The position numbers were made by a program, and so were the translations under genes. Positions 1,945 through 25,200 of a stretch of DNA of 37,803 nt are shown here, piece by piece. Source of the stretch: a virus (taxonomy: Duplodnaviria > Caudoviricetes). The notes under the pieces were generated by a model that was not told where the DNA came from, searched no databases, and saw only the letters and a list, made by a program, of their open reading frames with translations. The first letter of the stretch is position 1. Each line of letters begins with the position of its first letter. The stretch lies in the IMG/VR virus record IMGVR_UViG_3300026825_000035, positions 1 to 37,803 of that record. One strand, given 5' to 3'.

Positions 1945-4900
1945 TCAGAACTGCAGCGTGACCGCGGCCGGTGTGCCGCGACCGAGGCGGTTCGAGAGCT
2001 GGAAGATGCGGAGCGCCAGCGTCTGGCCGGGCCCGAGCGGCGCGCCCCAGTCTGTGATCTGCTGAGCAGCGGTGTAGAGGACGGTACTCGTGCTGCTGGT
2101 CAGCGTGCGCTTGACGGCCTGGCCATCAAGGATCTGGACGTCGAAGGATTCCTGGTCCTCGGCAAGCGGCACTTCGACCTGTTCCCAGGTATCGGCCACC
2201 AGCGCGCGGGACCGGCGTGTCCAGCGGATCATCAGATCGCCGGGTGCGCGCGCTGTCCGCCACGGCTGCTCGACATGAACCGGCGCGAAGGGCACGAGAC
2301 CCCGGCCGGTCGGGGTGAAGCCCAGCACGGCATAACTCGCATCACTGACCGCACGCGCGGCCGGGCCGACACGCCAGTTCCACGGCAAGCCCAGGTCAGT
2401 CTTGGCGATGGGCAGCGAGGCCAGCGCAGCATCCAGCACCACCACTCGTGCCCCTGCGGGGGCGGGGCTGCCCATGGCAAATTCCGTCCCGCGCTGGCCG
2501 CGCAGGAGGCGGGTCAGTCGGTAGCGGCCGGGCGCGAGCAGTTCAGCCGCGCCAGCCTGCACGATCTCCCACACACCTGCTGCGGACTCGACCGCCAGTG
2601 CGTTCGCCCCGCCGAACAGCGCGACGTCGGTCACACTTTCCAGCGTCCCGGACAGGAGATCGACGACCAGTGCGTTGCCCAGATCGAAGCGGGAGGTTGG
2701 CCCGGGAAAGAAGTCGAAGGCCAGCGTGCCGATCCGCGCCCGACTGCCGAAGGTGGTCAGCAGGCTGAAGCCGTCCGTCGAGGCGCTGCGGAAGACGGCA
2801 ATCTCACCCGGCCAGGGGCTGGCATGGGCCGCGATCAGGGGGCGATGGGCGAGCTGGTCCTCGCTGATCTGCGGAAGGTCCAGCATCACCACCTCGGGCG
2901 TGCCGAAGACGACGGGACTCGCGAGCGAGGCCGGGCGGGGATCGCCGGGCGGCAGGTCGTAGGCGGCCCGATCCTGGCGCACCGCCTCGATCCCGCGCGC
3001 TTCGGCATCTGCGACGGAGACCAGCCGGAACTCGACCTCACGGCCGTCATGCGCGAGCCGGATCACGTCGGCGGGATCGAGAGCTAGCCGCGAGGGCGGC
3101 AGGCGGAAGGTCGCGCTCTCGCGTCCGATCCAGGCTTCCATCAGGGCGCGGCGGCAGCGGCGTTCGGCCTCCTCGGGCGGGATCGCCATGGGGAAGGACT
3201 CGGACGCGATGCGGGTGGTGTCGACGGTGATCCGCCGCGCTTCCACCAGCGCGGCGTCATAATCCTCATCCGCCCGCGCGACCTGCCACTTCAGGGCCTG
3301 GGGCAGCTCTGTCTCCTGCGCGCGTGTCAGTTCGAAGGCCTCGCCTTCACGGCTGGCGACAAGATCGTCGATGGCGAGCGTCGCAACCGAGGCGCGGCCG
3401 CGCATGACAAAGCGGATCACGCCTTCGGTTTCGACGGCATCGAAGCCGAAGTGGCGGGCCAGCGTGGTGATCGACGCGCGGGGACTTTCCAGCGCGCCGA
3501 TCACATAGCCCTCGACCGCACCCCAGAGGCCGGAAACGTCGATGAGGTCGTCCGCAAGCCCTGCGCGCAGGCAGAGGTGACGCACGAGGGCCGCCAGAGA
3601 CACTGCGCCGAGCCGCCCTGTCAGCCAGTGACCGAGCCGCCAGTTAGGGCCATCGGTCCAGACGCCGGTCAGTTCGGGAAAGAACGGATAGGGCCGCGCA
3701 TCCCAGGTCCAGGCGGCGCATTCCGGGACATGGACCATCCGGCCGCCGTAGATCGCGGAAACCGGATTATTGGCCGGGGCGCCCCACCAGAGGTAACTGG
3801 CCTCGAGATAGGCACGCTGGATGGCGTCGTCGCGCCAGCCACGCGAGAACCATGGCGTGAAGCTCTCCGACGACTTCGGGTCGAAAAAGACGTTCGGCTG
3901 GTTGGTTCCCCGGTCGATGGCGGGACAGCCCAGTTCGGTGAACCACACGGGCTTCGACTGCGGTACCCATGCGGTGGGCGTGCCGCTTTCCACCCCGCCC
4001 GGCCGGTTGTAATGCGGGTTCGACCACTAGGCGCGCAGATCCTTGTAACGGAAGACCCAAGGCTTGCCCGCGCTGCCGTCGGTGATTGGGGTGCGGACCT
4101 GAGCCGCCCGGTCGGCAGCGCTGGCGTAGAACCAATCGAAGCCCTCGCCGCCCGCGATGTTGGCCTGCAGGTAGGCCCGGTCGTGGATCGCGGGCCAGCC
4201 CTCGAGCGCGTCGAGATGATCGAAGCCGTCGCGCCAGTCCGACAGCGGCATGTAGTTGTCGATGCCGATGAAGTCGATGTTGGCGTCAGCCCAGAGCGGG
4301 TCGAGGTGGAAGAACACGTCGCCCGAGCCGTCCTGCGGCTGGTGGCCGAAATACTCCGACCAGTCGGCAGCGTAGCCGATCTTCGTCCCGGCCCCGAGAA
4401 CCGACTTCACATCCGCCGCCAGCGCCTTGAAGGCTGTGACGGCCGGATAGGCACTGGCGCTCGAGCGGATCGTGGTGAGCCCGCGCATCTCCGAGCCGAT
4501 CAGGAAGGCATCGACCCCGCCCGCCACGGCGCAGAGATGGGCATAGTGCAGGATCATCCGCCTCAGGCCCCAGTCGCCGGAGGGACCGGTCCAGGAGACA
4601 GCGTCGCCCGATACCGCAAATTGCGCCGGGGTGGCCGTGCCGAAGAAGGCCGAGACCTGCGTCGCCGCGGCGGCGGTCTTGTCCGCAGTCCCCGCGAACC
4701 CTGCAGCTGGCGAACAGGTGATCCGGCCCCGCCACGGGAAACTCGGCTGGCCGGGCGTGGCGGCGTTGGCGCTGTAGGGGTTCGGCAGCGTGTTGCCGGG
4801 CGGCACATCCATCAGCAGGAAAGGATAGAAGGTGACGCGCAGCCCGCGCGCCTTCATCTCGCGGATCGCCTGCACCACCGCGAAATCCGCCGGCGTGCCG

Positions 4901-5910
4901 CCATAGATCGGACGGTCCTCGGCATCACGGCTGACGAGATGGGCAGCAGCGCGGGAAACCCCGTTGACCGTCCAGACCTTCGGGCTGGTAACCTTGGCTG
5001 CCACTTCGACGCCGGGCTTGATGGTGCAGTTGCCCGCGCGCAGATCGTTGCCGAACCAGGCGACCACGAGGCTGACGCTCTCGACGGCCGGGGCCATGGC
5101 TTGGAGTCGATCGAGCGCCACGACGATGTCGGCCTCGTCCGGCAGCGCGTTGAGGTTCTCGGCCGAAGTGCTGCCGCCCACGGTCTTGCGGACAGCCTCG
5201 GTCGCATAGGTGAACTCGCCAGAGGCGGGGATCATGGTCACGGCCTTGACGAGGCCCTCAGCCGTGTCTGGGTCCGCGAGCGGCCGGAAGACCTCGAAAG
5301 ACAGTTGCGGCAGGCGGTTGCCGTATGTCGCAAGCGGCAGTTCCTCGAAGACGACATAGGCTGTCCCGCGATAGGCGGGCGTGTTGGCCGAGCCCATCCT
5401 GGCCGCGATGAATGGATCGGCCCTCTGGCTCTCGTTCCCCGGATACCAGCGCCAGGTGATGCCCGTCATGTCCAGCGGCTTGCCGTCGGCCCAGATGCGC
5501 CCGATGCCGGTGATCGGGCCCTCGCACAGGGCGACCGCAAAGGACGCATAGTAGAGGTACTCGGTCGTCCGGACCCGGCCGCCGCCACCGCCCTTGCCGC
5601 CACCCTGTGTTGTGGTCTTCGTCTCCTCGCGGAAATCCGTGGCCCAGATGATGTTGCCGCCGATGCGCATGCGGCCGTAGAGGCGCGGGATGATCGCGCC
5701 TTCGGTGGCCGACGTGATGCGCAGGCTGTCGAGGCGCTGGCCTTCGATCTTCTGGGCGGGCGCCAGCGAGGACACGATCCAGCTGTCCACGACCGAACCG
5801 ATGGTCGAGCCGATGAAACCGCCGATTGCGGCCCCGGAAAAGCCGAGCATCGCGCCGCCGAACGCCCCGCCGATGGCGGAACCGACGGCACCGAGGACAA
5901 GCGGGGCCAT
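1945..5910 (-). pseudogene. RcGTA g15-like baseplate multidomain protein (megatron), broken by an in-frame TAG
   Basis: ORFs 4027..5910 and 1945..3993 share one frame (1322 codons); reads YKDLRA*WSNPHYNRPGG with TAG at 4027-4029, where homologues as I recall them have WW; TIM-barrel motifs IGSEMRG, IDNYMPLSDWR, FTELGCPAID. Confidence 0.88.
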
Positions 5911-9642: not shown

Positions 9643-12084
9643 TCACATGCCGCGTCGCCCGAGCGACACGGCGCGGGCGATGTCGCTCGCGACCTGGGTC
9701 CGCGACTGCCGGAAGCTCTCGGCGTCGCGGGCCATGATCGTGACATTGACGGTCGAGGCGCCCGCCTGGCCGTAACTGCCCGCCTCGCGCCGGGAGAGAA
9801 CCCGCTCCCCGCGTTGCAGGATCGCGGGCACCTCGTCGGGGCGCAGCCCGGCCCAGCCCCCGTTGTGCATGCGCGGGGCATTGGCGAAGGGGAGCGCCGG
9901 GACCATCCGGCCGGGGCCGGCCATGCCCACCGTGCCGCCTGCGTGCAGGATGTTCGCGAAAATCCCGCCCGCGCCGCCCAGCACGCCGGAAAGGGCGTTT
10001 GCGATGGGGCCAAGGATGAAGCGCCGGGCGGCGAGCTTCGCGAGATCGGCGATCATCGAGGTGACCAGATCTCGGAAGTCGAGCTTGCCGGTCTTCACGA
10101 AGTCGCCGATGGCATTCTCGGCGCTCTGGAACGCGCCCACGAGGGCGCTGCCGATGTCCCCGCCGATGTCGCGCGCCTTGGCGGCGTAATCGGCGAGTGC
10201 TGCCGTGACGGCTTGCCAGCCGGTCAGCGCCTGTTCCGCTCCGGCGGCCGTGTCGGACCCTGCCTGCCGCCCGGCCGCACCGGCGCGACCTGCGGCCCCG
10301 CCGGTCTCGTCCAGTTCGTCGCCCAATGCTCCGGCCGCAGCAGCGGCGTCCGCCAGAGCGGTCTCGGCGTCGGCCCCCGTGCGGGAGACGGCATCCTTCA
10401 GCGCCTGCCAGCTGGCGAGCGGCCGACCGGCGGCGTCAGCGAGCATCCCGGCCGCCTCGCGATAGCCCTCGGCCCGGGCGCGTGCGTCCTCGGCCATGGT
10501 GCCGAGACCGAGATCGGGCGGTTCGAGATAGGTCCGCGACAGCGCTGCCGAGAAGGCATCCGCGGCGGCAGCACTTGCGGCCGTTGCCGCGCCTTCGAAG
10601 GGATTGCCGATGCGCCCCAATTCCACCGGGTCGAGGGTGCCGATCCGCACGCCGCCTTCGCCGGTCGCCCATTCGGGGAGCAGCGCGAGGGCGGCGTTCA
10701 GGGTCTCGATGAAGCTGTTGATGCGCGTCACGACGCCGTTCAGCATCGCCTCGACGCCCGAGATCAGCCCGTTCGCGGCCTGGAAGGCGAAGTCGCCGAT
10801 GGCGCCGGGCAGGCTGCCCCAGATCGCCACTGCTGCATCATAGGCCCCCTGGAAGATCGCCGCCGTCCGGTCGCCGAAGCCGACGACGCCCGCGATGGTG
10901 CCCTCGAAAGCCGAGAGACCCGCCGCCTTCAGCCCTTCCCATCCGGCCGCCATGCGGGCCAGCGCGGCGTCGAGCGCGAGCCCGATCCGCGACCAGACCT
11001 CGCGGGCCAGATCGCCCAGCAGCCGGAACGCCTCGCCCACACCGCCGACCCGGGCGACGAGTTGCGAGAACTGATAGATCAGCTCGCCCGCGCCGACGAT
11101 CAGGGCTCCGATGCCGGTGCGGATCAGGGCGCCCCGCAGAAACACGAGCGCCGTCGCGAGGCCGCGCACCGACAGGGCTGCGGCAGCCATTCCCGCCACC
11201 CAGCGCCCAGCCATGACGGCCGCAAAGGTCGCGGCATAGGTGGCCAGCCGCCCGAGGTTGTCGAAGAGCGCCGTGATCGCCTGACCGATGGGGCCCGTCG
11301 CCCGCGCCATGTCGGCGAGTTTTGTGGCGATGGTTTCCAGCGCCGGGGCGACGGCCACGGTCAGCCGGTTCACGAGGCCGGTCCAGATCAGGCCGAGGCG
11401 CGCGATGGCGTCGCCCGTCCGCTCGATCTGGGCGGCATCCGCCGCGCTGACCGCCACCCCGAAGTCCTGCACGTCGCGGGCGGCATCGCGCAGCGTGGCG
11501 CTGTCGATCCGCAGGAACGCGAGCGCAGCCCGGTCGCCGAAGAGGTCGGAAGCCACGGCCGCACGTTCCGCCTCGGGCACGAAGCGGTTCAGCGCGTCCT
11601 GAATGGCGACGATCCGCTGGTCGAGCGGCAAGGCTTGCAGTTCCGCCGCCGTCAGGTTCAGCCGCCGCAGCGCACCGACGGCCGCGCCCGAGCCGCTGGC
11701 GGCCTCCGACAGGCGCGTCGTCAGCTTCTTCGTCGCCTGCTCGATCTCGCCCATCGAGACGCCCGCCAACTCCCCGGCTTGAGCCAGGGTCTGGATGCTC
11801 TAGACACTCGTGCGCATCGACTGCGCGAGCTTGGCCTGCGCATCGATGTTCGCAAGCCCCGAGCGGACCATGGCCACCCCGGCCGCCGCAGCCGCCGCAG
11901 CGACCGCCGCCAGCGCGATCCCCGCCCGGCGCGCGAAGCTCGCGAGGCGCGTGTTGGCCAGTTCCATCTCGGTGGACAGGCGGCCGAACCCGCGCGAGCC
12001 GGCCTCACCGATGCCTTCCAGTTCGGCACGGACCTGGCGGCCGCCGACCGCGGCGAGGCGGACGGAGACGCGTTTCTCGGCCAT
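9643..12084 (-). pseudogene. Tail tape measure protein, broken by an in-frame TAG
   Basis: ORFs 11800..12084 and 9643..11769 share one frame (814 codons); MRTSV*SIQTLAQAGELAG with TAG at 11800-11802; Ala-rich helical, C-terminal FVKTGKLDF and PAILQRGE motifs. Confidence 0.88.
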
Positions 12085-12133: not shown

Positions 12134-12162
12134 TTGAAATATGTATCATGACGTGATACATG
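12134..12162 (+). promoter_or_regulatory. higBA promoter with palindromic operator
   Basis: TTGAAA (12134-12139), 17 nt, TACATG; inverted repeat ATGTATCA-N5-TGATACAT at 12141-12161; ATG at 12168 has no SD, probably leaderless. Confidence 0.7.
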
Positions 12163-12167
12163 CCCTC

Positions 12168-12449
12168 ATGATCGTCAGCACGAAGGGCAAGCTCGCGGCG
12201 AACGCGGTGGCAGACCGGTTCGGCAAGGGTTTCCCGGCCGACCTGGTCAGGCGGACGCGGGCGATGCTGTCGGCACTCGATGCCGCCGTGGTCCTCGAGG
12301 ATCTCCGGTTTCCACCGGGCAATCACCTCGAGGAACTGAAGGGCGACCGCGCTGGGCAGCATTCGGTGCGTATCAACGGCCAGTGGCGCATCTGCTTCGT
12401 GTGGACCGATCAGGGACCGGCCGATGTCGAGATCGTCGACTACCATTGA
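12168..12449 (+). CDS. higB: HigB (RelE/ParE superfamily, plasmid killer type) toxin
   Basis: DLRFPPGNHLEELKGDRAGQHSVRINGQWRICF...EIVDYH signature; toxin-first order. Confidence 0.92.
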   Translation: MIVSTKGKLAANAVADRFGKGFPADLVRRTRAMLSALDAAVVLEDLRFPPGNHLEELKGDRAGQHSVRINGQWRICFVWTDQGPADVEIVDYH

Positions 12450-12460
12450 AAGGACGCGAC

Positions 12461-12751
12461 ATGACACTGATGAAGCACCCCTCTCACCCCGGCGAGGTCC
12501 TCTCGGAACTCTACCTCGGGCCGCTCGGCCTGAGCCCGATCGCGCTCGCCAAGCGTCTTCACGTTCCCCGCACGCGGATCGAGCGCCTGGTGAAGGGTGA
12601 AACCGCGCTCACCGTGGACACTGCAATCCGGCTCGCGACGTTCTTCCGCACGACCCCGGAATACTGGATGAACCTGCAGCGGGCCTGGGATCTCGCCCGG
12701 GCGCGCGACATGATCGACGTCTCAGACATCACGCCCCTCGAGGCCGCCTGA
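12461..12751 (+). CDS. higA: HigA family antitoxin (Xre HTH)
   Basis: HPGEVL...LAKRLHVPRTRIERLVKG...TTPEYWMNLQ; SD AAGGA upstream. Confidence 0.92.
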   Translation: MTLMKHPSHPGEVLSELYLGPLGLSPIALAKRLHVPRTRIERLVKGETALTVDTAIRLATFFRTTPEYWMNLQRAWDLARARDMIDVSDITPLEAA

Positions 12752-13401
12752 CTTCATCTGTTCGTTGAGCTTCGCCACCATCGCCGCCTCGATGACGGGC
12801 AGCAGTTCGGCTGCTGCGGCAGCAGGCACCCCGAGAGCTTCGCCAACCGCGAGTGCCGAGGTCAGGTCCCAGCCGACGATGGCGCCGGGGATCACCCGCA
12901 GCTGGCCCCCCAGCCGGCCGACCAGGTCCCAGACCTGCCAGCCCTCATGGGTCAGCGGTCGGTTCAGCCGCGCGGGACATTCCGTGCACGTTTGCGGGCA
13001 CGCTTCGCAGTAGCGATCGCCCCCGCCGAAGTGCCACTCGGCGAGGACGCAGAGGCGTTTTTTTCCTGTTCCAGCAGCAGGCCCTTGGAGACGTAGGTCA
13101 GCTGGAAGGCCTCGAAGATCGGCCAGATGTCCAGAGCCGCGTCGATGGCCTCCGGGCTCGGGTCGATGGGATTGCCGTCCGCGTCGCCGATGCCCTCCCA
13201 GGCAAGCACCGCGCGTCGGGCCAGTGCCTTGGCGAAGGCGACGGCGCGTTCCTCGTCACTCGCATCTTCCGGCACTGCCTCGACAGCCGGATCGCTGCGC
13301 GTCGCCACCATCAGCGCTGTGGTCAGCGGGCGGAGTTGCACCCGGACGCCGGGGGCGAGGGCGTGCCAGCGCGGCGCGTTCGTCAGGTCGAGCGTGAGCA
13401 T
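12722..13401 (-). CDS. Tail assembly chaperone, long (GT-like) form via -1 frameshift
   Basis: Slippery A-AAA-AAC at 13063-13057; -1 frame open to TGA at 12724-12722, encoding RLCVLAEWHFGGGDRYCEACPQTCTECPARL... Confidence 0.7.
12964..13401 (-). CDS. Tail assembly chaperone, short (G-like) form
   Basis: MLTLDLTNAPRW... between tail tube and tape measure; start at 13401 because the longer ORF call runs into the IS110. Confidence 0.8.
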   Translation of the reverse strand: MLTLDLTNAPRWHALAPGVRVQLRPLTTALMVATRSDPAVEAVPEDASDEERAVAFAKALARRAVLAWEGIGDADGNPIDPSPEAIDAALDIWPIFEAFQLTYVSKGLLLEQEKNASASSPSGTSAGAIATAKRARKRARNVPRG

Positions 13402-13419
13402 TGTCTTATGAATCTCCTC

Positions 13420-13604
13420 GGTTCTCGGGATACTCGGGAGCCATGGCCCGCCACGCCATTTATGGCGGGCCATGGCGGCGGTCGGATCGTGTCAGCAAAG
13501 GTCAGCGGGACCGGTATTGAGTGGGATCGGCCGCCGTCTTCACCCAGGGCCTGAACGGATACGCGTGCTTGCGTCACGCATGACAAGGATAGGACACGGC
13601 GAAG
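13420..13604 (+). ncRNA. IS110 bridge RNA (5' hairpin, target-binding loop, donor-binding loop); ends approximate
   Basis: 14-bp perfect hairpin 13440-13476; GTCAGCA (13491-13497) and GTATTGA (13514-13520) flank a GGTC/GACC stem; ACGGATAC (13555-13562) and GACAAG (13582-13587) flank a GCGTG/CACGC stem. Confidence 0.8.
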
Positions 13605-14547
13605 ATGACGGAGCACACGATCGGGATCGACATTTCCAAATCCCACCTCGATGCATTCGATCTGGAGGGGAATGAGGCGAGGCAGTTCGAGAATTCGGCA
13701 CAGGGCGTGCGCGCCCTGCAGAAATGGCTCGCCCCACTGGACGTGACGCGCCTCGTGTACGAGGCGACAGGGCCTTATCATCGTCGCCTGGAGACGGCTC
13801 TCTCGGGCAAGTTCCCGCTCGTGAAGGTCAACCCTCTGCAGGCGCGGCGCTTCGCGCAGGCTGTCGGAACGCATGCCAAGACAGATGCGGTGGACGCCCG
13901 CTGTCTGGCGCGCATGGGGGTCGCGTTGGAGCTGGAGCCCGACGAGCCCGTTTCTGAAAACTTGCGCGATCTTCGTGACTTGCAGACGGCGCGAGCCGCA
14001 CTGATCAAGGAGCGGGGGCGTCTGCGTAAACCGCCGCCTGATCCTGACCAGCGCCCTGCTGAGGCGTCAGACCAACGCACGCCTCGTCCTGGTCGAACGG
14101 CAGATCGGCGAGCTTGACGCCGAGATCGGACGGCGCATCGCCGAGGATACGACGAGCGCACGCAAGCGCGACATCCTGAGCTCGATCCCCGGCATCGGGC
14201 AGATTGCCGCCGCTGCAATTCTCACATTTCTCCCGGAAATCGGCACGCTCGGGCGAAAGCAGGCTGGAAGCCTGGCCGGGCTGGTTCCTCACAACAGGGA
14301 GTCAGGCCAATGGAAGGGCAAGTCCTTCATCAGCGGCGGACGAAAGCCGCTGCGCGACGCGCTCTACATGCCCGCTCTGGTCGCCATGCGGTTCAACCCG
14401 GATCTCAAGGCCAAGTATCAGCAACTGCGCGAAGCCGGAAAGCCCGCGAAAATCGCACTCGTCGCGCTCATGCGGAAGCTGATCGAGATCGCGAATGCCC
14501 TGGTCAAGGCCGACCGCCTGTGGGCGGAAAAACCCGCTTGCGCATGA
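13605..14547 (+). pseudogene. IS110 family transposase/recombinase with +1 frameshift
   Basis: DEDD residues GIDISK, YEATG, KTDAVDA; extra A at 14028-14030; corrected frame gives SIPGIG...RESGQWKG...ALMRKL to TGA 14547 (313 aa). Confidence 0.9.
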
Positions 14548-14554
14548 CGGATAC

Positions 14555-15508
14555 TCAATACGTCTCCACATCGTTCACGAGGGTTGCCGTGCACATCCGT
14601 CCGACGACACTGTCGCGAGCGGCCTGCCAGTCGAAGGTCGCCTGCACCCCCTGCGGCCCGGAGATCTCGATGCGCGGGCGCGGCAGGTAGACGGCATGCA
14701 CGGTGAAGGTGAAGCTCTCGCCGGAAGGCAGGCTGTAGGAGAACTCCATCTCGCAGGCCTCGCCGTTGATCGCCTGCGTCACCAGTGTCTGGTCGGCGAA
14801 GCGCACCTCGATCCGGCCGGTCAGCGCCGCGATGGACGGGTCCGCGCCGTCAATGCGGCCATCGCTCCGGATGGTCTCGATCCGGTCGAGGTTGTTGGCA
14901 TAGGTGATCTCGGCCGAGACCACGTTGCCGAGTGCCGTGCCATTCCGCGTGATCGCCCCGTTGAAATGCCCGAAGCGCTTCAGCTCCAGCGCGGCGGGTG
15001 GTGAGGCGGGTGCGCCGAACGCGCTGGTGGTCGTGCTGACCGTCTCGCCCTGCGCCACCAGCCGTGCGGTCGCCGTCAGCAGCCCCGAGCGCTGCATCTG
15101 CCAGGTCAACTGATCGAGGACGCAGCCGGAATACATCGCGTAGCGCGGCACCTCGGGCATTCCGGTCTCGATGGAGAGGCTCGGCAGCGTCCAGGCGCCG
15201 GATCGGAACTCGTGCGTCCAGGGGCCGGTGCCAGTCGTCGTCGGTGTCCCGAAGGCCGCCTTCAGCCAGAAGCCGAAGGCCTCGGCGTCGAGCGGCACGA
15301 CGACGTCGCCATCGGCCGTCACCGCGTCCTTGATCGGCGCCAGCGGATCGCGGCCGTAGCCCAGCAGTTCCGAGTTCAGCAGCGGCTGCTCGGCGCCGAG
15401 CGTGGTGCTGGCAAACGGCATCTTCGTGAAGCCGCTCGCGGGCGGCGTGCCATAGACGGTCTCGAACGCAAGCGCCATTTGCGCCCGCGCCCCTTGCGCG
15501 CGTGCCAT
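14555..15508 (-). CDS. Phage tail tube protein
   Basis: MARAQGARAQMALAFET family N-terminus, beta-rich, SD AGGAG, canonical position. Confidence 0.85.
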   Translation of the reverse strand: MARAQGARAQMALAFETVYGTPPASGFTKMPFASTTLGAEQPLLNSELLGYGRDPLAPIKDAVTADGDVVVPLDAEAFGFWLKAAFGTPTTTGTGPWTHEFRSGAWTLPSLSIETGMPEVPRYAMYSGCVLDQLTWQMQRSGLLTATARLVAQGETVSTTTSAFGAPASPPAALELKRFGHFNGAITRNGTALGNVVSAEITYANNLDRIETIRSDGRIDGADPSIAALTGRIEVRFADQTLVTQAINGEACEMEFSYSLPSGESFTFTVHAVYLPRPRIEISGPQGVQATFDWQAARDSVVGRMCTATLVNDVETY

Positions 15509-16027: not shown

Positions 16028-16381
16028 ATGCCGTGGACCGTTTCGTTCGCAGAGGAGTTCGAGCCGGAGTTCGACGAACTCCCGCAGGATGTGCAGGACG
16101 CGATCCTCGCGCGCGCGCTCCTGCTGGAACGCGAGGGGCCATCGCTCGGTCGACCGCATGCCGATACCCTGACAGGGTCGAAGCACGCGAACATGAAGGA
16201 ATTGCGCTGCAACGCCGCCGATGGCGTATGGCGCATCGCCTTCGCATTCGATCCCGACCGGCAGGCGATCCTGCTCGTCGGCGGGGACAAGTCGGGGGTG
16301 AGCGAGAAGCGCTTCTACAAGCAGCTGATCGCCCGGGCCGATGAGCGGTTCGACCGTCATCTGGCCAATCGGAAAGGATGA
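16028..16381 (+). CDS. RelE/ParE-family (Gp49-like) toxin
   Basis: GPSLGRPHADTLTGSKHANMKELR...WRIAFAFDPDRQAILLVGGDKSG signature. Confidence 0.9.
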   Translation: MPWTVSFAEEFEPEFDELPQDVQDAILARALLLEREGPSLGRPHADTLTGSKHANMKELRCNAADGVWRIAFAFDPDRQAILLVGGDKSGVSEKRFYKQLIARADERFDRHLANRKG

Positions 16382-16386
16382 GGACC

Positions 16387-16761
16387 ATGGCACGGACCCT
16401 GAAGGACAAGCTGGCCACGCTCGATGCGGCCCGTCGCGCGGGAATCGAGGCCGAGACCGACCGGCTCCATACCGAATACCTGACGCTGCAGGAACTGCGG
16501 AAGGCCAAGGAGATGACGCAGGTCCAGCTGGCCGAAGCCCTCGGCATCCGGCAGACGACGGTGGCGAAATACGAGCGGCAGAGCGATCTGCTGCTCTCGA
16601 CCCTGTCGAGCTATGTGCGCGCGATGGGCGGCTCGCTCAAGCTGATGGTCGAATTCCCCGGCAAGGCCCCTGTCGCCCTCGAGGGTCTCGGAGACACGGA
16701 GGAACCCCGTCGTCGGCGCCGCAGCGGTCGCGGCGACGGCCCTGCCGAGGCTCGCGCCTGA
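16387..16761 (+). CDS. Xre-family HTH antitoxin
   Basis: LQELRKAKEMTQVQLAEALGIRQTTVAKYE...LSTLSSYVRAMGGSL; follows the toxin (alternative start 16378). Confidence 0.9.
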   Translation: MARTLKDKLATLDAARRAGIEAETDRLHTEYLTLQELRKAKEMTQVQLAEALGIRQTTVAKYERQSDLLLSTLSSYVRAMGGSLKLMVEFPGKAPVALEGLGDTEEPRRRRRSGRGDGPAEARA

Positions 16762-22210: not shown

Positions 22211-25200
22211 TCACCTCATGTAGCTCGAGTGCACCGTGCGCCGGCGTGGCATCGCTCGTGTCGGGACGGATGGCACCGTTGCCGCACCGGCCTCTTGCCC
22301 GTCCTGCTTCGCCACCCCGAGCTGGGCTTCCAGATCGGCCCAACGCGCCTCCGGCCAGCGATCGGCGCCGGCGATCCAGGCCGCGGCGCGGGCATAGACC
22401 CGGCAGTCCAGCGCCTCGTTGCGCTCGCGCAGCTTCTGCCATTCGAGCCTGGCGAAGCCGCGCCGGGTCTTCACCGTCACCAGCTGCTCGGCGGTCAGCT
22501 GCTTCAGCCATTCGCCGTCCGCCCAGGCCGGCAGGTGGATCGTGCCGGGCGGGCACTTCGATGCGGCGGCGGCGATCTCTTCGGCCGTGGGGCGCTCCTG
22601 CCGCGGGAAGCGATAGGTCTCGGCCTTGAAGGTCGAGGTGGCCACGGTCCAGAGCCGGGCGCCGCGCCGGAGCCGCTTGCCCGCGACGGTGGCATCGACA
22701 TAGGTCGGCCCGGTCACCGGGCTCGTCCGGGTGAAGCCCTCGACGCCCTTCACGGGCGCCACCTGCGAGAAGCCGACCTGACGGGCCCAGCCGTAGACGG
22801 CGCTGGTCTCGTAGCCGGTGTCGATGGCGAGCCGGGCAAGCGCCATTGGCTGCCCCGAGGCATGCGCCCATGTCCGCCCGAGCAGGTCGGTCAGCTTCTG
22901 CCAGCAGGCCGGATCGCCGGGCCCGCCCTCGATGACGACGTGATCGACGAGCCAGCTTTCGAGGCCCCGGCCCCAGGCCCAGACATCGACCTCGATCCGG
23001 TCCTTCTGCACGTCGGCCCCGGCCGTCAGGAACAGCCCGCCAGCGGGCACCGTGCCGGATGTCCAGCGCTCGCGCCGGTCGTAGAGCCGCTGCCAGTCGG
23101 GGGCTTCCCCGGTCTCGACCCAGGTCTCGCCGAGGATGGTGTTGCGGAACGCCCGCATGGCTTCGTCGCTGCCTCTCGCCGCCTCGTGCGCCCGCGCGAT
23201 CCGCGCCCAGCTCAGCCAGCCGATGGGCGAGTAGAGCGCCGAGAGGTGGTAACCCACCGTGGTGGGATCGGCGGCCGTGGCGGTCGCCCGCCATTCGCCG
23301 CCCTCCAGCATCGCCGTCTTGTGGTGTTCCGCGATGGGTGCCTCGCACCCCTCGCAGTGATATTCCGCCGTCTCCGGCCGCCCCTTCTCCCAGCGCAGGC
23401 GCTCGAACGTCAGCCACTGCATTGCCCCGCAATGCGGGCACGGCACGAAGTACCGCCGCTGGTCGCTCGCCTCGAACTCGCGCTCGATCCGACTGAGTCC
23501 GCGGATCGTCGGGGTCGAGACAAGCAGCACCTTGCGCCGATGGGCGAAGATCAGCGAGCGCGCCTCGGCCAGCGTGACCGGATCGCCTTCCTCGTCGGCG
23601 GACGCCGGATAGGCGTCGACCTCGTCGAGGAAGATGTAGCGGGCCGGTGTGGAGCGCAGCCCGACCGCCGAGTTCGCGCCGGTCATGATCAGGATGCCGC
23701 CCGCGAATTCCTTCGACAGCATCGTGTTGCCCGCATCGCGGGATCGCGCGGGCTTCACCCGCTCCCGCAGTTCCGGGCTCTCGTCGATCAGCGGATCGAT
23801 CCGCTGGCGCGAGTTGCGCTTGGCCAGTTCCACCGTCGGCTGGACCGCAAGCATGGGACCCGGCGCCTGGTGGATGACGAAGCCGATCCAGTTGTTGCCC
23901 GCCTCGGTGTTGTGCGTCGGGATCCAGCCCTTCCCGCAGAGAAACAGGTGGCTGGGAGAGTCGACCTCGATGCAGCGCACCGGCACGCTCGGCGCGGGCC
24001 GGATCGCGACAATCCGCCGGCGGCGGCTCCTCCACGGCCGCCCAGTCTCTATCGAGCGCATCCGGGCCCGCTTGCGCGAGAGCCGGAACATCGGCTCCTC
24101 GGCATAGGCCGTCCAGGACACGCGCCAGTATTCGGCCGATATCGTCGCGTTGCCGTCGGTTCCGAACACCTTGCGGCGGCTGCCCATCCGATAGATCGCG
24201 GGCTTGTATCCCAGGCCGCGGAGCAGCTCGACCATCGCATCTACGAGGCCCCGGTCGGCGTTTGAGAATTCGCAGCGCTTGCCGTCCGGCGTGATCGTGC
24301 CGTCGGAGTCCATAAGCCCGCGCACCAGTTCGAGCCGCTGCCTCCGGCTCGCCCGCATCTAGGCGAGCGGCACGTGCTTGTTGTCGAGCACGTCGAGCTG
24401 GCGCAGCCGCGTCACGAAGCGCGATCGGAAGCATTCCGAAACCGACGCGCGATCCGCACGCCGCGTCCGGAAGGTCGGGTCGATCACCACATTGGCAATC
24501 CGGCCCTTGCGCCATTTCGGCAGCCGGAACTCGGCCTCGACGCCGCAGGCGCGCAGGTGCTCGACAATCTCGGCATCCTCCTCATGGACCGAGATGTGGT
24601 TCATGATCGACGAGCCGTCGCCGAGCCAGAGCCCCAGCACATAAGGGTGCAGGATCAGGTCCTGGTCCGGCATGTCCACCGCGTCGCAACAGTCGATGGC
24701 ATAGCGCCGGCGCTTGCCCGCCGCCCCGATCGTCACGCGCCTGGCCATCTGCGCCGTGGTCAGCGTTCGCGCCACGGGTCGATCGTTCGTGAAGTCCCAT
24801 ACCGGCCAGCGATGATCGCCATCCGCGACGATCCGTTCGCCATCGTCGAAGACTACCTCGAAGCAGGCGCGGCCGGTGAAGACCGGCGACAGGCCCATGA
24901 CCCGGCATATGCGCCCGCCTTCGTCGTAGAGCAGATCGCCCGGCGCGATCTCGCCCATGGTCGTCCAGCCGAAGGGCGTGGGCACCGCGGTGTCGAGCGC
25001 GAGCGGCGCGCCCACCTGGGCCGCCTTCATGAACACGACCCGCTGGGCCGGATCGCCCGGCGACAGCCGGTCCATGATCTCGCGCATGTAGGGCGTACGC
25101 GCTGTCCGGTACTGGCCCGGTTCGGCGGAGGCGCGCGACCCCAGCCGCCGATGCCGATCCGCCCATTACGAGACCGTCAGATCCGGATCGGGGCGGATGC

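Follow-up and report, generated by a model that had tools for sequence, protein, structure and literature searches.

Predicted bridge RNA of an IS110 element matches a stop/start overlap between two tail genes of an alphaproteobacterial prophage family

The virus record IMGVR_UViG_3300026825_000035 (Duplodnaviria; Caudoviricetes), analysed here over its 37,803 nucleotides (the window), represents a lambda-like prophage with genes for terminase gpA, portal, Clp protease, capsid E, tail tube and tape measure. An insert of 1154 bases, an insertion sequence of the IS110 group, separates its tail tube and tail assembly chaperone genes. Removal of 13402-14555 recreates a TGATG overlap in which the Tyr-stop end of the tube gene runs into the Met-Leu-Thr start of the chaperone gene; this had been claimed in an original prediction made from the sequence alone and was reproduced. 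The base shared between element and target is present on both sides of the insert, so that the tube retains its stop codon and the chaperone its start codon. The evidence assembled below suggests that a predicted bridge RNA in the left end of the element likely steers the recombinase to this conserved overlap, which belongs to a widespread alphaproteobacterial prophage family, and that the lineage of the element is likely specialised on this phage.

Empty forms of the junction, which the original prediction proposed to look for in related prophages, are abundant. In Shinella (L001; L and G numbers are our own handles) the tube and chaperone genes adjoin directly and the element is absent, and contigs from two of four DNA sequencing runs omit exactly 1154 bases at the same junction. 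Chaperone loci were fetched in 80 cases and scored in 79 (L344 was too short), near-identical phages being kept in the counts, and 77 of the 79 scored phage loci lack the element. The stop/start overlap is present in 47 of the 77 empty loci; compared with these 47 sites over positions 2-14, the guide matches at 13 of 13 bases in 25 and differs at one base in 16. The guide of the window spells the commonest form of the empty junction. At target position 4 the mismatch between guide and window had been read as a synonymous leucine wobble: C, the letter of the guide, occurs in 55 of the 79 phages, G, the letter of the window, in 21 and A in three, and the C form also stands at the occupied loci L005, L067, L069 and L356.

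The gene carried by the element encodes an IS110-family recombinase, matching PF01548 and PF02371 as well as NF033542 (203 bits against a cutoff of 140) and aligning to the structures of IS621 and ISCro4 (PDB 8wt6 and 9t56; E 4e-30). The catalytic residues D9, E53, D94, D97 and S233 are all present in the window copy and invariant in 12 relatives. Cargo is absent, this recombinase gene being the only one. Just 8 bases follow its stop codon at the right end, and the non-coding region lies upstream of the gene, in a left end of 203 bases. Membership of the IS1111 group, in which a seekRNA lies downstream, inverted repeats are sub-terminal and the guide order is reversed, was ruled out by the upstream non-coding region and the 8-base right end. 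A helper-embedded phage-inducible chromosomal island (PICI), with its integrase, AlpA and replication genes, was likewise ruled out, the element having the recombinase gene only. A single extra base near 14027 breaks the reading frame of the window copy; contigs from three of the four runs carry it, and an assembly artefact was rejected for this reason. In the fourth run (X6) an in-frame relative spans the same tube/chaperone junction, and the frame is intact in most relatives. The window copy is a frameshifted passenger that would be mobile only with recombinase supplied in trans.

Four guide motifs had been proposed at 13491-13497, 13514-13520, 13555-13562 and 13582-13587, and all were found at these coordinates. 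IS621 numbering, with the geometry of PMC11208158, refines the left target guide to 13490-13498, matching at 7 of 9 positions, and the right target guide with its core-pairing letters to 13514-13521, where it pairs over 6 bases beyond the core (Table 1). Dinucleotide shuffling of the left end gave an equally good ordered pair of target guides in 6 of 20,000 cases. A consensus fold of 19 left ends predicts a 5' stem-loop, a target-binding loop and a donor-binding loop, with 45 pairs, eight of them compensatory, and with the guides unpaired. Across relatives the scaffold and the donor guides are nearly invariant, like the ends of the element, while the two target guides form the variable columns. 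These columns follow the flanks: left guides and their own flanks agree at 5.5 of 8 positions, against a mean of 3.32 and a maximum of 3.88 under permutation (50 non-redundant guide pairs), and right guides and their flanks at 4.0 of 5, against 1.96 and 2.66 (38 non-redundant guide pairs). The proposed IS621-type layout is therefore backed by covariation of both guides with their flanks, above the permutation maximum, and by a conserved fold with compensatory changes. The handshake can also be read from the sequence, with base 13522 pairing to donor position 7 and 13588 to target position 7, and neither to position 7 of its own substrate. A search of Rfam gave no match to the left-end RNA.

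By analogy with IS621, the element would circularise and its joined ends would create a promoter. A -35-like hexamer of the right end and a -10-like hexamer of the left end are brought to a spacing of 17 bases in the circle junction only, an arrangement known from IS621 (PMC11208158), and no promoter was predicted in the linear form. Contigs of the four DNA runs contain no circle joint, though contigs drop rare forms. The donor loop of the RNA would then bind the circle junction and its target loop the 14-base phage site, after which the top strands would be cut behind position 9 and exchanged.

The two cores are unlike, the target core being AT and the donor core CT, with position 9 alone in common. 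That only T is shared, and not CT, had been noted originally; the difference is real and the guide follows it. Left cores among 79 junctions comprise 68 CT, eight AT, two GT and one TT, and all eight AT cores belong to the guide of the window, whose position 8 is A. The right guide retains AG, the letters that pair with an incoming donor CT, and pairing of the right-guide AG with the incoming donor core after strand exchange has been described (PMC11208158). In IS621 the top strand is cut after position 9 and the products are already mismatched at the two bases flanking the core (PMC13626964); by this analogy the difference at position 8 would add one further base to a mismatch-bearing zone beside the core. 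Since the core T is near invariant and the core C less so (PMC11208158), the AT left core is a variant rather than grounds for excluding the element from the IS110 group. In the work consulted (PMC11208160; 10.1101/2025.05.14.653916), both cores were altered together or matching cores were filtered for. The existence of natural AT/CT and GT/CT pairs suggests that unlike cores can recombine if the left guide is fitted to the target and the right guide to the donor, which would relax a design rule of bridge editing.

The guide or left end of the window was found in ten distinct contexts, of which seven lie at the tube-stop/chaperone-start overlap, one lies inside the tube gene and two are truncated non-phage copies. 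The seven junction contexts are the window type (also L009 and L193), L003/L004, L005, L067 (Rhodovulum), L069, L219 and L356, the last with its left junction only and its guide past the contig end. At L068 (Antarctobacter) the element occupies an 11-base match inside the tube gene, and the junction of that prophage does not match. Counting only contexts from non-viral collections, the phage tube/chaperone locus accounts for 6 of 8, and among bacterial species genomes for 3 of 3, each single-copy. The idea that this lineage is a specialist of a conserved prophage site is largely borne out, with eight of ten contexts in the tube/chaperone locus, but survival bias may play a part, and the non-phage copies L182 and L227 show that the preference is not exclusive. 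Guide-pattern scans gave 124 loci, 11 of them with the RNA scaffold (adjoining DNA was fetched for 80 of 106 metagenome loci); in a scan of viral contigs with the 15-base right junction, 3 of 55 loci contained the element, all at the junction, the remainder being chance matches. A search of a phage collection returned tail-tube matches only and did not find the element.

This junction, and further genes of the phage family, have also been reached by unrelated IS110 lineages. The element at L355 (333-1496) is a different IS110 with 50% identity, inserted in the opposite orientation at the last codon of the tube gene, 5 bp from the window site. Its right guide spells the core, the Tyr codon and the stop, and contains a G able to pair with either Tyr codon; its left guide matches at 8 of 10 positions, apparently in a register two bases to the left of that usual for IS621, and registers vary among members of clade B. 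The insertion replaces the last tube residue by two and preserves the chaperone start. This last-codon site is also used by L387, L391, L479, L480 and L481 and by the distant L395/L511. Other recurrent guide sites are the end of the terminase gene (L433, L512, L513, L518), the stop overlap of a cement gene (L495-L497) and one internal position of a DUF6441 gene (L393, L498-L502, L517), and further elements lie at or near a tail-protein stop (L070, L011, L411). In a C5 cytosine methyltransferase gene (PF00145 in L519 and L509), two guide lineages occupy two fixed internal sites and interrupt the gene (L482, L516, L519, L520 and L523; L504, L506, L509 and L527). A single prophage on one 57-kb viral contig (L509, L518) carries two different IS110 elements, the one at the terminase end, the other within the C5 methylase gene. 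At L394 (G334) a clade-B left end is joined in inverted orientation to this tube/chaperone junction, displaced by 4 bases from its usual site, and is possibly the product of an inversion or a half-match.

A tree of the recombinases (72 rows) requires five changes for its 15 phage-located rows and rejects a single clade for them (p-AU 1.75e-49); here L074 was counted as non-phage although it adjoins a tail-protein fragment, and nine rows with short flanks were left ungrouped. Of 63 bacterial-genome junctions with at least 300 bases of flank, 11 lie in late genes of this phage family, whose prophages make up about 0.2% of host DNA by our rough estimate, in a sample where kin of phage-located elements are over-represented because such elements served as queries. 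Clade B is found in phage in 5 of 7 genome-derived contexts. Among 74 neighbouring open reading frames (ORFs) of non-phage junctions, a Pfam scan recovered a single terminase, from a different type of phage (L399), and none of this family's virion genes.

We are fairly confident that these patterns reflect repeated, guide-directed insertion by IS110 lineages that have specialised on this phage family. In line with this, the target is rare in hosts, with one to five sites of at most one mismatch per genome in five of five genomes. Codon constraint would keep the target constant over many phages, giving the guide a target that is continually renewed, and phage virions would take the element from host to host. 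Since relatives occupy this and other conserved sites of one phage family, the phage likely serves as a vehicle, and several IS110 lineages may have arrived at the strategy separately.

Several observations weigh against this interpretation. Many of the loci were drawn from viral collections, which favours phage sites. Exact target matches number 58 in 401 host-family genomes (with one flanking position constrained), and about two thirds of them are non-phage, the junction accounting for 8 of the 30 that were fetched and 21 of the 58 as judged by eye from flanking context. The sister guide lineage is a generalist, found in phage at L070 and outside phage at L071, L140/L419 and the G405 ends; L392 and L422 are also non-phage. 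Several clade-B guides insert within coding sequence (DUF6441, C5 methylase), so that sparing of genes is not general. The chaperone tree is almost unresolved (67 branches, 2 of them starred), and a single origin of the seven occupied junctions is not rejected by it (p-AU 0.71). Finally, L182 and L227 represent one truncated derivative (99% alike over 376 bases) with a poor left-guide match in non-phage DNA. This copy consists of the left end and 38 codons followed by foreign DNA, with two different left flanks, of which that of L227 resembles another transposase gene; the right flanks are missing from both, and the two may be half-match products (cf. 10.64898/2026.08.31.748434).

A first alternative is a generalist RNA-guided element that inserts at any match, its prophage copies being tolerated and its chromosomal copies purged, with a guide that has undergone no adaptation to phage. 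Chromosomal sites make up 22 of the 30 fetched exact matches in host-family genomes, the sister guide occurs in both settings, and related elements are inserted precisely at the stop codons of chromosomal genes, in head-to-head orientation (ATP synthase gamma subunit at L072:1316, a TPR protein at L140:762). We nevertheless judge this account unlikely. Over 13-14 bases the guide reproduces the sequence carried by most phages, and its position 8 is shifted to suit the phage AT core; each of several unrelated guides matches a conserved site of its own in that phage family. In addition, the L068 element took a tube-gene site with two mismatches despite five better matches in its genome.

Under a second alternative, a single old insertion at each site was spread by descent and homologous recombination among phages, and the guide match is a relic. 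The failure of the chaperone tree to reject one clade for the occupied junctions is in line with this, as is the frameshift of the window copy in three of the four runs; as to separate origins, the tree neither backs nor refutes them. The flanks speak differently, with elements 98-99.9% identical lying in flanks 85-93% identical and differences appearing within 4-6 bases of the junction. Thus L003 and L219 share an element 98% identical over 925 bases next to left flanks of 85%, their differences beginning 4-6 bases off the junction, and L355 and L387 have elements that agree at 1163 of 1164 bases beside flanks matching at 186 of 201 and 170 of 200. Flank identity averages 87.9% for empty and 86.0% for occupied phages, so that the 85% of L003 and L219 is close to the background between empty phages. 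Near-identical copies in diverged phages indicate separate insertions, and since a second site (L068) is taken by this guide as well and reading frames are intact in most relatives, a single old event per site appears very improbable.

We give hardly any credence to the remaining proposal, a host or prophage switch or defence in which the insertion uncouples chaperone translation or blocks late-operon transcription and tails stay disabled until the element leaves: a 1.15-kb antisense insert does split a translationally coupled overlap, L068 and several clade-B copies interrupt coding sequence and integrase-driven satellites delay helper late genes in a similar way (PMC10111431), but stop and start codons are both kept, no intrinsic terminator was found in 13300-14700, the element is without cargo, excision of IS621 is reported as copy-out with the site staying occupied (10.64898/2026.08.31.748434), and 4 of 8 guide-A left ends, compared with 1 of 53 others, present the chaperone start with a purine run resembling a ribosome-binding site, a comparison of related sequences and hence weak.

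On the reverse strand the left end (window 12964-13473) gives an open, in-frame extension of the chaperone by 24 codons, with a purine-rich run 12 bases ahead of the chaperone start. Predicted ribosome-binding strength at this start averages -5.4 kcal/mol with guide A and -5.97 kcal/mol at native empty sites, which leaves the idea that the left end supplies the chaperone with a ribosome-binding site a weak one. IS110 elements of the IS900 type insert in one orientation between the ribosome-binding site and the start codon of chromosomal mycobacterial genes, a comparable oriented insertion at the start of a gene, though not in a phage.

Returning to guide-directed insertion by specialised lineages, a wider picture may be put forward tentatively, as one we consider possible rather than probable. 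A guild of RNA-guided IS110 elements would parasitise one abundant family of temperate phages, with lineages diverged to 50% identity separately reprogrammed onto codon-locked tail, head, terminase and methylase sites, several of which are stop/start overlaps, with both genes spared and a new ribosome-binding site perhaps provided. Such elements would travel in infectious virions and insert into sibling prophages that are still empty, using naturally mismatched cores.

By every testable feature save the two-base shared core, the element of the window is an IS110-group bridge recombinase of the IS621 type. Like IS621 and ISCro4/IS622 (PMC11208160; PMC11208158; 10.1101/2025.05.14.653916), it combines a DEDD domain with a serine recombinase and has a CT donor core; as in IS621, a non-coding left end holds the 5' stem-loop, target loop and donor loop with the four guides in the same order, and the position-7 handshake logic (PMC11208158) and a predicted circle-junction promoter recur. 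Unlike in IS621, the target is a phage coding overlap rather than a repetitive extragenic palindromic (REP) sequence, a target core AT is combined with a donor core CT, the right guide pairs over 6 bases past the core and the window copy is frameshifted. Known targets of the IS110 and IS1111 groups are REP sequences, attC sites and Tn21 ends (PMC11187229). IS1111-group elements target mobile DNA, as with IS4321/IS5075 at Tn21 inverted repeats and ISKpn4/ISPst6 at attC (PMC11187229), and share with the present case an RNA-directed choice of a conserved site within another mobile element. In that group, however, the RNA lies downstream with reversed guide order and the targets are recombination sites or repeats, whereas here the RNA lies upstream and the targets are codon-constrained virion genes.

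The helper-embedded PICIs (PMC10111431) offer another parallel, being a clade of mobile elements with repeated tropism for several late-gene sites of lambdoid prophages. They are large satellites that use an integrase and an att core, disrupt a helper gene and excise on induction; the present elements, in contrast, use RNA guides, are cargo-free at 1.15 kb and in several cases spare the genes. Phage-derived cargo, rather than phage targets, is reported in 10.64898/2026.08.14.744561. Our literature search, whose scope left out most subscription papers and the natural-target supplements of PMC11208160, found nothing on IS110 guides directed to the virion genes of phages. The mechanism itself is already known. 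In the present set of lineages the guides can be read, empty sites are plentiful and insertions have recurred separately, so that nature provides an experiment on how a transposon targets a virus through guide RNAs, and phage-site targeting offers a testable route by which insertion sequences might cross genera.

Table 1. Coordinates in the window of the element, its predicted RNA and guides, and neighbouring prophage genes.
Feature	Position	Strand	Remark
IS110 element, left end to core T of right end	13402..14555	+	empty sites skip 1154 bases
Left target, positions 1-9	13393..13401	+	core AT at 13400-13401; reverse strand reads chaperone start codon and next two codons
Right target, positions 10-15	14556..14561	+	reverse strand reads last Tyr codon and stop of tube
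Left donor with CT core (element right end)	14547..14555	+	right end identical in relatives
Right donor (first bases of left end)	13402..13406	+	
IS110 recombinase gene	13605..14547	+	RuvC-like DEDD and Tnp domains; one extra base near 14027 breaks frame
Predicted bridge RNA	13440..13604	+	5' stem-loop 13440-13476, target-binding loop 13477-13535, donor-binding loop 13538-13604
Left target guide (predicted)	13490..13498	+	position 8 is A, matching AT target core
Right target guide (predicted)	13514..13523	+	core-pairing AG within 13514-13521; handshake dinucleotide 13522-13523; geometry from PMC11208158
Left donor guide (predicted)	13555..13562	+	identical to 14547-14554
Right donor guide (predicted)	13582..13589	+	guide 13582-13587, handshake dinucleotide 13588-13589
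-35-like hexamer	14538..14543	+	17 bases from -10-like hexamer 13407-13412, in circle junction only; predicted circle promoter
Tail tube gene	14555..15508	-	PF18906; stop codon retained despite insertion
Tail assembly chaperone gene	12964..13401	-	phrog_313; start codon retained despite insertion
Toxin-antitoxin-like pairs	12141-12751 and 16028-16761	+	HigB-like/HTH and Gp49-like/HTH

Elsewhere in the window, the genes for the large tail protein (phrog_4271) and the tape measure both look split into two ORFs (1945-5910 and 9643-12084), so the prophage may be decaying. The terminase large subunit likewise consists of two ORFs (22211-25087), the second of which starts with a LAGLIDADG-like domain, and this gene is possibly intein-bearing or broken. 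Two toxin-antitoxin-like pairs, one HigB-like and one Gp49-like, each with a helix-turn-helix (HTH) partner, lie on the plus strand inside the late operon.

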